Of a stretch of DNA of 64,000 bases, positions 27,001 to 30,000 are shown piece after piece. The position numbers are program-made. The stretch is from positions 118,525 through 182,524 of the forward strand of contig CAVOMX010000025.1 in assembly GCA_963697165.1 (NCBI GenBank), written 5' to 3'. Source of the stretch: Candidatus Bathyarchaeota archaeon. GTDB lineage: Archaea > Thermoproteota > Bathyarchaeia > Bathyarchaeales > Bathyarchaeaceae. How positions within the stretch are numbered: the first letter of the stretch is position 1; every line of letters begins with the position of its first letter.

Positions 27001-30000
27001 CCGATACACCTGTTAACAAACCTAGGCGCTGCTCTTTTGAACATGAAAAACAAAGGAAAAAGCAGGTGAACCTGCGCCGCTTTGGCTTGTAGCCCATCTG
27101 GAGTCTAGCCTAAGCTGGCTAACAGATTTTGTTCAAGTAAAAGATAGGCTAACAGAAGTAGAGCACAGCCAACCAGAAGGAACCTGTATGCTTGGCGGGG
27201 GTTATACGCGTACTTTGTGCTTCTATATGCCACAAGAAAGCCCACGACTCCCATAGCATAGAAAATCATGATGATTATGCTCTCCAAGAGCAACTGCTCA
27301 GAAATCCCATAAGGATAGAAACTGATTATTCTTCCAGTAGAACCGACGATTGCTACGATGGGCTGGATCAGCAGGTCGTAGACTCCGCCTGCAAACAGGA
27401 ATAGTGAAGCAGCAACAACCGCGGTGGCAACAACAAATAAGGAAGGTTTAGCAGTTAGTATTCTCTCGTAAGTTTTCTGCAACGAAAAGGCAAGAGATGA
27501 AAGTTGTTTACTAAAACTTTTAGCCATAGTTTATCCATCCTTGTTCATCAATAGATGCTCTGCAAGTTCTTTTGCCCAAGCGCCTGTGTATGAATTCTCC
27601 ACAACAGCTTTTAAATATTCCTTCCAAGAGACGCCCGCAGTCCTTTGCCAAGTTTCAAATTTCTGAACAACAGCACCGTAAGCTCTTTCGTGGAACTCGC
27701 AATATTTCTCTACAGCGTCTCTGCCACAAACAATGCACTTCACGGTTTTTTCCTCCGCTTATCCTTAAGAGAGCAATCGAGATTGAAGCACATGTTCCAG
27801 GGGTTCTTGCCTCTGAGCCACACCAGAACAGTTGGCCAGCCACACGCTTTACAGTTGCTTTTGGCGGGTTTAATGGTTCCACGTTGAGGAAGAGGAAAAG
27901 ACGTTTTACATATACCTTTGAAGTAGTTGGTGCAGCCAATGAAGCGCTTTCTAGTCGTCCGCGAATAGATAATCATAAGTTCGCCTGTGCCACAATTTGG
28001 GCATCTTCCCACAGTTCGTTCCTGTATTTCCGCTCTCGTAGTGGCTTTACTCAAGGCTTCGCCGATACTTTCTTCGTTTTCTTTGAATTGTTCCAGCTGG
28101 GACTTCAGCTGCTCAACAACTTCTGCGATAACAGTTTCCCGCCTCATTTTACCGTTTTGGATTTGTTCCATTTTACCCTCAAGGTCTTGAGTGAGCATCG
28201 CCGAGACTAGAACCGAAGCGTACCTGCCGAGAACATCGATGATATCGAAGCCCAGCTCAGTCACCACAATTCTCTCATCCATGATGTATTCGCGGTTGTA
28301 AAGAGTCTGAATGATATCTGCTCGGGTTGCCTTAGTTCCGATTCCAAGCTCTTCCATCTTATTAAGGAGACTACTTGGATTGTAACGAGGCGGGGGGCAG
28401 GTGAATTTGTCTTCCCGTATGACCCGCCGCAGTCGAACAGTAGCCCCTTCTTTGAGTGGAGGCAAAAGCACCTCCTCGGCACGAACGTAGGGCTTGTAGT
28501 ATTCCATCCACCCTTCCTTCACAAGCCGTCTTCCCCTCAAAAAGAAGTTGTGATTGTTTACTTCTAGGCGCGCCTTTATACTCTCTTTGAGTGCATCCTC
28601 CCCGAAAACAGCCATGAACCGTCGGACAATAAGGTCCCAAATCCTCTTCTCTGGCGCGCCCAAGGGCTTTTCTGGTAGGTTTCCTGTTGGATAAACCGCA
28701 GGATGGGCGGAGTCGTCTTTGGCGCCCTCTCGTGGCTTGAGTTCTTCGTTTTCTAGAAGTTTTGAGGCTAACTTTTTGTAACCAAATTGTCTTTTGAGGG
28801 AGCTGAGAATCTTTCTGTAGTCTATTATGAGAGGCAGTTTCTGGCTGCTTGTCCTTGGATATGAGATTAAGGCGTCAAGATATAGGCGCTGAGCGATTAC
28901 TAAGGTGCGTCGTGGAGTGTAACCGAAGAGGCTGTAGGCTTCCCGCTGTAGTGTGCCCACATCGAAGGGCACAGGAGGTTTCTGGTGAACCGTTCTTACG
29001 TTAATCTTGGCGACTTCTCCAGTTTTGTCTGCACAGGCTCGCAGAACAGCATCAGCTTCCGCGCTTGTTTCAATTCGTTTTCTTTCATATTCTGCCTCAA
29101 CGACAGAGTTTAGGATTTCAGCCTCAGCAATTATTTCCCAGTATGGGGTGGGCACAAAGCTGCGGATTGCCTTCTCTCTTGAAGCCAGAAACTGGAGGGT
29201 GGGTCCCTGCACTCTTCCCGTGCTTAAGGTTGAGTATCTGCCGCTCCAGCGGCGCGCAGCTAAAGTTAAAGCCCGTGAAAGGTTTATGCCGTATAGCCAA
29301 TCCACTTCATGTCTGGTTCTTCCAGCTTCTATGAGCTTAAAATCTAGGTGACGGAAGAGGCTCTTCGTATGCTTTTTCTAACTCGCTCTTCATGAGAGTA
29401 GAAAATCGCATCCTTTTTGCTGAAGCGTCCTTGTTGCCGCAGGCATACTTCAGTATGCAGTATCCGATGAGGCTGCCTTCAATGTCGTAGTCGCAAGCTG
29501 ACATAAACTCGTCAGCATCATGGGACAGCTCCGAAAAGGTTTCAACCCAATTACTTATCGTCTTTGATCCTCGCTCTGCTAGGTGCCGCGGTGTCCACCT
29601 GAAATTGAAGACAGGATAATAGTTTCGTTTTCCTCTTTCTTGGACGATAGTGTAGAGATGTCCGATGGCGGGAATAACAACAAGCTGTCTGTCTCTTTGG
29701 GCAACGAAGTAGGTTACACCATTTTTTTTAAGATGCTTTGGCTTGCCTTGCCGGTCAAGGGCATATGCGATTCTTTTTGCTGCATCCGGTTTTTCGGTGA
29801 CTATCAGGGTATATTTTTCACATTTTTGTGTAACTATCGAGTCTGTACCAGAATTATCCTTTGCTGATTCTGGCGACATTGTACCTAATCAGTGGTTGAA
29901 ATTAGAGATACTATATTAAAACTTTCTAGTTGGTAATTGGTCAGTATTGTAGTACCCTAGAGAATTTACTCTAGTAATATCATTCTTCTGCTTTCAACAT

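Follow-up and report, generated by a model that had tools for sequence, protein, structure and literature searches.

The window, a stretch of 64,000 nucleotides of a Bathyarchaeia genome, contains a real and conserved gene whose product is homologous to DC2/OSTC of the eukaryotic oligosaccharyltransferase (OST), has no thioredoxin domain and is encoded near aglB, usually head to head with it, in many families. The reading that we favor, and consider fairly likely, is that this DC2-like protein is a non-catalytic subunit of an AglB complex, an orthologue in kind of DC2/OSTC, with binding to AglB predicted by modeling. The features on which the argument turns are:

27105..27527, minus strand: gene for the DC2/OSTC-like protein (open reading frame with ATG start, 140 aa)
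27062..27075, minus strand: terminator-like hairpin and T-run directly 3' of the DC2-like gene (consensus match only)
32660..34969, plus strand: aglB, an STT3-type oligosaccharyltransferase of 769 aa from the first start codon (Pfam STT3 PF02516, E 3.3e-41)

The reading frame proposed in the initial annotation, with its strand and length, was recovered unchanged; it closes a minus-strand series of genes that starts with pieces of topoisomerase I. The T-run beyond it (27075-27062) lies in a region where terminator-like hits are as numerous as expected from shuffled sequence. Directly upstream of the gene sits a 70-aa Cys-rich ORF (27531-27743), which we rejected as a partner of the DC2-like protein because it belongs to topoisomerase I, of which it forms the C-terminal zinc-finger end (NCBIfam NF004438, 605-671 of 677, E 5.4e-11). 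The AT-rich stretch at 29900-32000 showed no Rfam family and no striking repeats.

Hydropathy and the structural model give the same build for the protein: an N-terminal basic helix followed by three membrane helices at residues 31-49, 83-101 and 113-131, so that of the "three or four" helices counted earlier, three stands and four does not. Lysine and arginine number five at the N-terminus, one in the first loop and three in the second, and this distribution therefore points to an N-in, C-out topology, the N-terminal helix being cytoplasmic by the charge rule; a published passage on DC2 places its C-tail in the lumen, in agreement with this orientation. The AlphaFold2 model is confident, as had been reported, with a pLDDT of 93.6 (previously 91.8). 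No thioredoxin domain, nor any other additional domain, was detected in the 140 residues, just 30 of which precede the first membrane helix, and the domain was absent from 13/13 longer relatives. Because the domain is lacking, the protein cannot play the part of an oxidoreductase as Ost3/6 do.

In both sequence and fold the protein is solidly homologous to DC2/OSTC and to the membrane part of Ost3/6/MagT1, which bears out the assignment made in the initial annotation. The Pfam family OST3_OST6 (PF04756) matches residues 12-130 of the protein on profile positions 163-280 of 294 (E 3.1e-4), reproducing the earlier sub-threshold match; at 20.7 bits it stays below the gathering threshold of 27 bits. 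Some close relatives have a precomputed PF04756 assignment, and 39 of the 62 aligned family members match this profile individually at E≤1e-3, with a best E of 5.2e-10 that agrees with the earlier value and a count that replaces the earlier 40 of 50. When the protein was compared by phmmer with all PDB sequences, human OSTC (E 1.9e-7) and canine OSTC (1e-6) were the sole two matches at E≤10, spanning residues 28-130. The 62-sequence family profile is more sensitive: it finds OSTC at 3e-18 and 5e-16 and MagT1 at 4.2e-6 (chain residues 219-326 of 335), and the next match, at 0.088, is unrelated. In the Foldseek search with the model, ranks 1-10 are all chains of eukaryotic OST, as first described, with a best E of 2.7e-5 (7.6e-6 before) and TM-scores to the target of up to 0.82; from rank 11 onward E is at least 1.8 and the match probability at most 0.16. 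Database proteins matched at E≤1e-3 number 384, and a search of representatives at 50% clustering gave 173, the same count as before.

Within this superfamily the protein belongs with the DC2/OSTC subtype, having three helices, N-in/C-out topology, no thioredoxin domain and a size close to the ∼150 aa of that subtype; it has neither the N-terminal thioredoxin fold with CxxC nor the four membrane helices that define Ost3, Ost6, MagT1 and TUSC3. It would correspond to the three-helix membrane module that Ost3/Ost6/MagT1 bear behind their thioredoxin domain. The genome's only match to the thioredoxin part of the OST3_OST6 profile is on contig 18 (34.1 bits, profile 7-106); we rejected it as a split-off Ost3 domain, since it is a 142-aa cytoplasmic thioredoxin with a WCMPC motif and no membrane segment.

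No gene of the genome other than aglB matches STT3; it starts 5.1 kb from the DC2-like gene, in line with the ∼5 kb noted earlier. The database copy of AglB (P0271) has 760 aa, which would place the start at 32687. The protein carries WWDYG at 586, a double sequon DNGTVNTT at 604, SVQE at 406-409 and a DK-type motif, DEGKWRWMAKI, at 661-671; the definitions of WWDYG, of the DK type and of the eukaryote/TACK-type double sequon (DNXTZNX[T/S]) are those of a passage in PMC8342417. The last four membrane helices of AglB span 419-437, 444-462, 466-484 and 512-530.

We docked AglB residues 1-545 with the DC2-like protein, both given as alignments, in three runs with three controls. All three runs reached an ipSAE of 0.75, while the best control reached 0.00; the runs share at least 93% of contacts, and partner pLDDT is at least 78. 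The mark applied here is reached by 116/157 solved complexes vs 2/215 mismatched pairs. These figures reproduce, on a construct that includes TM13, those obtained earlier with AglB 1-500, from which the last helix was missing. The predicted interface joins AglB 411-532 to residues 30-138 of the DC2-like protein, on a side of AglB that we take to be where DC2 and Ost3 sit in eukaryotic OST. There the DC2-like protein would pack its three helices against TM10-13 and the end of external loop 5, and may thereby stabilize or tune AglB. The docking result may stem from the model's memory of the solved OST-A and OST-B structures, a caveat that the docking tool itself gives.

On the DC2-like protein, the predicted interface residues are somewhat more conserved than the rest of 28-138 (0.491 vs 0.417, one-sided p 0.016). 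On AglB, where the genome also encodes the partner, conservation of the predicted interface positions does not exceed that of their neighbors in 411-532 (0.519 vs 0.515, p 0.38), and partner-carrying and partner-less genomes differ in conservation to the same degree inside and outside the interface (p 0.5). The double sequon is found in 13/17 AglB proteins with the partner vs 6/20 without it, an enrichment and not a strict association.

A further probable OST subunit is encoded on contig 14. This 545-aa protein combines beta-rich outer domains with a single membrane helix and, on the cytoplasmic side, four long helices (model pLDDT 79.3). Its family profile matches human OST subunit 1 at 8.5e-6 and 8whn_A, the cytoplasmic domain of MK-D1 OST1, at 3.1e-8; OST chains fill Foldseek ranks 1-8 (E 2.3e-17 to 5.7e-12), and PF04597 is found in many relatives that are 50-70% identical. 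We class it as an Ost1/ribophorin I-like protein; the Ribophorin_I Pfam profile alone misses it, and a closer probe was needed to find it. The DC2-like protein is also present in each of the 37 genomes whose Ribophorin_I match exceeds the Pfam cut-off. Pfam searches of this genome, which is 81% complete, gave no match for Ost4 or KCP2 (PF09775, none at E≤1) and noise-level matches only for Ost5, for which controls matched in 9/14 genomes. The "two-subunit form" proposed in the initial annotation thus keeps its extra subunit beside AglB, as a prediction, and understates the number, because the genome also encodes the Ost1-like protein. Rather than acting as a single-subunit enzyme, AglB here probably forms an assembly of three or more proteins that includes the DC2-like and Ost1-like ones.

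It is possible, although we think it rather unlikely, that the main job of the DC2-like protein resembles that of human DC2, namely to hold the transferase, besides binding it, at SecYEG for glycosylation during export; contact with the protein channel is described in the DC2 literature, in a passage on this subunit, as its defining role. A companion idea, to which we give the same low weight, is that the cytoplasmic helical bundle of the Ost1-like protein would hold the ribosome. The family matches OSTC/DC2 better than MagT1 (3e-18 vs 4.2e-6) and shares with DC2 the three-helix, domain-less build, and the C-terminal region of the contig-14 protein is what matches the Asgard OST1 domain 8whn_A, which pulled down ribosomes in an assay described in a passage of PMC11417166. 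That pull-down, however, combined human ribosomes with an Asgard protein, from another lineage; no KCP2 homologue was found in the genome; and in eukaryotes the domain-less form may be a derived state and not the ancestral one.

The DC2-like gene is present in 94/151 sampled genomes of the phylum, always as one copy, and in all 19 other sampled genomes of the same class, which upholds the wide spread and class-wide presence claimed on smaller numbers (22 of 41 Thermoproteota genomes, 6 of 6 Bathyarchaeia). The profile of the window family also finds it in 57/61 Asgard genomes, in one or two copies. The 57/151 phylum genomes without it include whole families with complete genomes, and nearly all of them retain AglB; AglB therefore works without the DC2-like protein. 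On a quick AglB tree, presence of the gene needs at least 3 changes vs a shuffled mean of 12.5, a sign of clustering by lineage but of no more than that.

Linkage was measured on 91 strong matches in the 151 genomes, 90 of which come from genomes that also have an STT3 match, STT3 being nearly universal. For the 61 on the same contig as that match, the two genes lie within 1 kb in 19 cases (all divergent), within 10 kb in 49 (45 of them divergent, 4 co-oriented) and within 20 kb in 56; 16/19 families hold a pair within 10 kb. Both genes occur in several complete, single-contig genomes of the set. In some families the gene is far from aglB (711 kb, 333 kb, 127 kb), and in family f14 the distance is 13-17 kb. 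The linkage is also non-specific, because the same block retains radB (8/16 loci), carS (6/16), topoisomerase I (5/16) and PAC2 (4/16), which are unrelated to glycosylation.

One more small gene shares this neighborhood:

32134..32316, plus strand: 60-aa zinc-ribbon gene directly upstream of aglB (tblastn, alignment)

It was found by tblastn in 12/16 loci, is conserved beside aglB and the DC2-like gene in other families, and occurs in 116/151 genomes. Its invariant residues in the alignment are C7, C10, C34, P35 and C37, and a search for a specific family returned none. We rejected it as a strict member of the module: it occurs in families without the DC2-like protein and was not found in the DC2-carrying families f12, f16 and f19. 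Because the two genes differ in phyletic profile, it is uncertain whether the zinc ribbon is part of the system.

Could the protein have left AglB altogether and taken up a role of its own, such as one in cation transport or, next to carS, in lipid metabolism? The Pfam title "OST3 / OST6 family, transporter family", the position of carS as direct neighbor here as well as in the loci counted above, the families in which aglB is distant and the lack of signal in the AglB-side conservation test all lean that way. We nevertheless judge such a role improbable, given that three helices in 140 aa would hardly make a lone transporter, that every pair within 1 kb is head to head with aglB, that strong matches and STT3 co-occur in all genomes but one (with the near universality of STT3 in mind), and that the docking prediction passes its controls. 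That the ORF is a chance open frame in hydrophobic-looking sequence, as its shortness, its lack of a curated family match over threshold and the lack of transcript cover in one metatranscriptome run might suggest, is already refuted by its conservation in the database proteins and in the phylum and Asgard genomes, and by its confident fold. The run in question held 6% of sampled words; its contigs, 90-99% alike, map to carS, topoisomerase, a zinc-ribbon ORF at 32433-32632 and aglB, and it gave no usable cover of the DC2-like gene.

With the DC2-like protein taken as an AglB subunit, a wider proposal can be made, tentatively and with more doubt than conviction: a multi-subunit OST of the OST-A type, coupled to both ribosome and translocon (AglB, a DC2-like adaptor to the channel and an Ost1-like protein whose helical bundle binds the ribosome), would predate Asgard archaea and still be in use in many Thermoproteota. 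If so, the domain-less DC2 would be ancestral and Ost3/6 would have arisen in eukaryotes by addition of a thioredoxin domain; co-translocational N-glycosylation would be an archaeal invention; and the cultured Crenarchaeota behind the single-subunit view of AglB would have lost accessory subunits. Archaeal oligosaccharyltransferases are called single-subunit enzymes in passages of reviews and structural papers. If the proteins assemble, biochemistry on AglB alone from carriers of the gene may miss part of the enzyme, and the label "OST3/6", with its implied oxidoreductase role, would be misleading for archaea.

It is instructive to set the protein beside its known counterparts. The closest is human/metazoan OSTC (DC2) of the STT3A-type OST-A (6s7o_H, with the same sequence in 8b6l, 8pn9, 9n9j and 9ygy; canine 6ftg_3). 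OSTC has 149 aa against 140 here, and the two share three helices, N-in/C-out topology, absence of a thioredoxin domain and, as predicted for the DC2-like protein, a place on the last helices of an STT3 homologue. Unlike OSTC, the archaeal protein (∼21-25% identical) would act at the plasma membrane and not the ER, has no KCP2 partner that we could find, and has its gene close to that of the catalytic subunit or head to head with it. Yeast Ost3/Ost6 and human MagT1/TUSC3 (6s7t_H being MagT1) resemble it in that its helices align with the last three of MagT1, and chains of OST-B and of yeast OST, the latter presumably Ost3/Ost6, are among its ten best fold matches; it differs from them in having no CxxC thioredoxin domain and one helix fewer.

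The Asgard "OST3/OST6" (arCOG14980; Eme et al. 2023, Table S3; the MK-D1 OST3/6 of Carilo et al. 2024) is the same family in the same short form. Two Asgard rows of that table list proteins of ∼140 aa, and the representative matched by the DC2-like protein (P0262) maps to Asgard MAG records only (13/13 loci). A single sentence of PMC11417166 states that OST1 and OST3/6 subunits occur in eukaryotes, TACK and Asgard archaea, so presence in the wider group was in print, as acknowledged earlier; absence outside Thermoproteota and Asgard archaea is taken from that sentence. The same paper shows the Asgard OST complex, modeled with AlphaFold2, superposed on the human translocon. In the published passages covered here, the one sentence was all that we found on copies from the present group, and it describes neither their form nor their spread, gene linkage or docking. 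The family, already reported from Asgard and related archaea, is thus not new in kind: of the novelty first claimed, the short form and the modeling were in print for Asgard archaea, while the figures given here for spread and linkage are new. The value of the finding lies mainly in those numbers and in the three-gene picture rather than in the discovery of a family. Unlike the Asgard copies, the present one comes from Bathyarchaeia (Thermoproteota). Three of the subunit types of eukaryotic OST are represented in this archaeon outside the Asgard group, and in most families of the phylum the gene of the small one stands beside aglB.

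The initial annotation had described a gene for a small membrane protein related to oligosaccharyltransferase (OST) subunits, and our analysis confirms this observation: the 140-aa open reading frame is present, its sequence matches OSTC (DC2) and its fold matches OST chains. The gene and its surroundings in the window are as follows.

Features around the DC2-like gene (window coordinates)
27105-27527, minus strand: DC2-like gene, 140 aa, open reading frame with ATG start
27531-27743, minus strand: topoisomerase I C-terminal zinc-finger piece, 70 aa; its start overlaps the stop of the core
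27740-29305, minus strand: topoisomerase I core
29337-29879, minus strand: topoisomerase I Toprim part
32134-32316, plus strand: zinc-ribbon gene, 60 aa, CxxC...CPxC, directly upstream of aglB
32423-32548, plus strand: second zinc-ribbon ORF, 41 aa, between the 60-aa ribbon and aglB
32660-34969, plus strand: aglB, the sole STT3 match in the genome

The sole Pfam row for the small protein is a sub-threshold match to OST3_OST6 (E 3.1e-4, 20.7 bits against a cut-off of 27, profile positions 163-280 of 294). A phmmer search of all PDB sequences returned two chains at E≤10, 6s7o_H (1.9e-7) and 6ftg_3 (1e-6), both of which are OSTC/DC2. Exhaustive searching of cluster representatives gave 173 proteins at E≤1e-3, mostly of 120-160 aa, and a family profile was built from 62 of them, 39 of which match PF04756 individually (top E 5.2e-10). 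Against PDB chains, this profile finds OSTC at 3e-18 and 5.3e-16 and the last helices of MagT1 at 4.2e-6 (chain residues 219-326 of 335); the first chain after these is unrelated (0.088).

The AlphaFold2 model from the 62-sequence alignment is confident (pLDDT 93.6, pTM 0.77) and contains the three membrane helices seen by hydropathy (residues 31-49, 83-101 and 113-131), plus a small hairpin within the first outer loop. In Foldseek, OST complex chains from human, dog or yeast take every one of ranks 1-10 (top E 2.7e-5, TM-score to target up to 0.82), with E≥1.8 from rank 11 onward; sequence search showed that the human and canine chains are OSTC or MagT1, and the yeast chains we take to be Ost3/Ost6. 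No thioredoxin domain was found in the small protein or in 13 unusually long relatives. The sequence and fold matches and the absence of this domain therefore indicate a DC2-type rather than an Ost3/6-type protein. Because the segment preceding helix 1 is basic (5 K/R), while loop 1 (49-78) has one K/R and loop 2 (101-112) has three, the positive-inside rule predicts a cytoplasmic N-terminus and a C-terminus outside. The gene is the final one in a minus-strand run, after which a terminator-like T-run follows.

A different protein of this genome does exceed the OST3_OST6 cut-off, with 34.1 bits, through the thioredoxin part of the profile:
Contig 18, 104770-105033 (extracted locus L002:1432-1860), plus strand: cytoplasmic thioredoxin with an OST3_OST6 match
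We rejected it as an Ost3, since it is an ordinary cytoplasmic thioredoxin. At E≤1 the same search gives matches in 12 of 14 control genomes, and this part of the profile can mislead automatic annotation into calling "OST3" in prokaryotes.

The small protein is widespread in Thermoproteota, with matches in 94 of 151 sampled genomes (77/132 high-quality genomes; 49/78 genera), including each of the other 19 from the window's class; STT3 is matched in 141 of the 151. Families f9 (0/5), f17 (0/13), f18 (0/5), f23 (0/5) and f25 (0/3) lack it, and the 19 genomes of f8 give two weak matches only. A quick tree of 37 AglB sequences requires at least 3 changes in partner presence, versus a shuffled mean of 12.5, a clustering that reflects lineage. 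In the Asgard phylum, whose OST3/OST6 was reportedly first described in a 2017 paper, the family profile matches 57 of 61 genomes, once or twice in each, and P0262, a cluster representative matched by the small protein, has all 13 of its loci in Asgard MAG records only. The family is therefore the same as the Asgard "OST3/OST6".

We then considered linkage to aglB, which in the window lies 5.1 kb from the DC2-like gene on the opposite strand. We left out the weak matches of three genomes, G105, G076 and G012, and a second, likewise weak, match in G023; the STT3 match lies on the same contig for 61 of the remaining 91 strong matches and on another contig for 29, and one strong match is in a genome without an STT3 match.

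Distance from the DC2-like gene to STT3, same-contig pairs
Within 1 kb: 19/61 pairs, all divergent
Within 3 kb: 34/61 pairs, orientation not broken down
Within 10 kb: 49/61 pairs, 45 divergent and 4 on the same strand
Within 20 kb: 56/61 pairs, orientation not broken down

A pair within 10 kb occurs in 16 of the 19 families having any same-contig pair; we estimate the chance of two genes lying this close at about 1% in a 1.5-Mb genome. Part of this adjacency is conserved housekeeping synteny, because neighbouring genes are also kept in the block: tblastn against 16 loci from other families finds radB in 8, carS in 6, topoisomerase I in 5 and PAC2 in 4, all lower bounds because little flanking sequence was included with each locus. 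The order radB, carS, DC2-like gene, (topoisomerase I), zinc ribbon, aglB, PAC2 (window 25803-35754) is partly kept across these families (L006-L021).

In 12 of the 16 loci, tblastn places the 60-aa zinc ribbon, with invariant C7, C10, C34, P35 and C37, next to the DC2-like gene and aglB or in the gap separating them; the ribbon's profile matches 116/151 genomes of the phylum. Family f17 has no DC2-like gene; in 13/13 of its genomes the top ribbon match is 95-340 nt upstream of STT3 on the same strand (by eye). The ribbon matches no specific family, resembling RNA polymerase subunit P weakly, and contig 12 carries a better RpoP candidate; the ribbon may be an unrecognised companion of aglB. 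The 41-aa ORF matches the RpoP-type ribbon family PF03604 weakly (E 0.0056, below cut-off), and a relative's metatranscriptome contig maps to 32433-32632, at this ORF.

Topoisomerase I (27531-29879, minus strand) reads as three ORFs. By coordinate count, the first break is a frame change in the window that is in frame in L006, and may therefore be an assembly error or mark a pseudogene; the last break recurs in L006 with the same frame change, so that this split may be genuine. Between the topoisomerase and zinc-ribbon/aglB genes, some 2.1 kb (29900-32000) have 31-33% G+C versus 41-50% around, with ORFs of at most 72 aa until 31702, no Rfam family and no striking repeats; a replication origin and a decayed insertion are guesses.

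AglB fits the eukaryote-like kind described in a passage of PMC8342417: WWDYG is found at 586 and a double sequon, DNGTVNTT, at 604, loop 5 contains SVQE, and a DK-type motif is present. Its last membrane helix spans 512-530, so the 1-500 construct of the earlier docking had cut it off; the positive result of that docking was reproduced with a longer construct. With AglB 1-545 as a 36-row alignment including AglBs from 16 other families, together with the small protein's alignment, ipSAE was 0.75 in 3/3 runs (best of 3 controls 0.00), at least 93% of contacts were shared between runs and partner pLDDT was at least 78; the score mark is reached by 116/157 solved complexes and 2/215 mismatched pairs. 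The predicted interface on AglB (411-420, 424-440, 448-460, 479-490 and 505-532) extends from the end of loop 5 through the last four helices. Because OST-A, OST-B and yeast OST are already solved, this pass may reflect likeness rather than binding. Conservation of the small protein is modestly higher at the interface (0.491 versus 0.417 for the rest of residues 28-138, p 0.016); on AglB there is no excess (0.519 versus 0.515 for nearby positions within 411-532, p 0.38), and the conservation gain in partner-bearing genomes is no greater at the interface than at other positions (p 0.5).

A further subunit is suggested by Ribophorin_I, which matches 41/151 genomes of the phylum (37 over cut-off) and 0/14 controls; all 37 over-cut-off genomes carry the small protein. 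The Pfam model has no match in the window's own genome, which is 81% complete. The closest relative's copy, used as probe, matches a 545-aa protein there (E 2.1e-85, 40% identity):
Contig 14, 39488-40618 (extracted locus L066:1495-3132), minus strand: Ost1/ribophorin I-like protein, 545 aa, missed by the Pfam model
Its family profile matches human OST subunit 1 (8.5e-6) in the outer domain and 8whn_A (3.1e-8) in the C-terminal region. In the model (pLDDT 79.3), the outer domains are rich in beta structure, a single helix crosses the membrane and four long helices lie on the cytoplasmic side; Foldseek gives OST chains at ranks 1-8 (E 2.3e-17 to 5.7e-12). According to PMC11417166, the structure 8WHN shows the four-helix bundle that Asgard MK-D1 OST1 has in the cytoplasm, and this bundle pulled down human ribosomes. 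Judged by sequence, the contig-14 four-helix region is homologous to this Asgard ribosome-binding domain. The OST-subunit interpretation is supported in an amended form, with AglB, the DC2-like protein and the Ost1-like protein as at least three candidate subunits and with the docking as a prediction.

Our searches found no paper that joins Asgard, Ost3, thioredoxin and STT3, and none describing the DC2-like form in Thermoproteota, how widely it occurs there or what it is linked to. Passages in PMC8993221 and PMC8342417 term archaeal OSTs single-subunit, one in PMC4973528 (2016) reports that no prokaryotic homologues were found, and PMC5674889 defines the role of DC2 and doubted its kinship with MagT1/TUSC3. 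PMC10307638 lists at least 300 Asgard OST3/OST6 (PF04756) candidates, cluster arCOG14980; the two rows checked are both about 140 aa. To these accounts we add the spread and linkage numbers, the DC2-type assignment and, in a non-Asgard archaeon, an Ost1-like companion with a domain of the ribosome-binding type.
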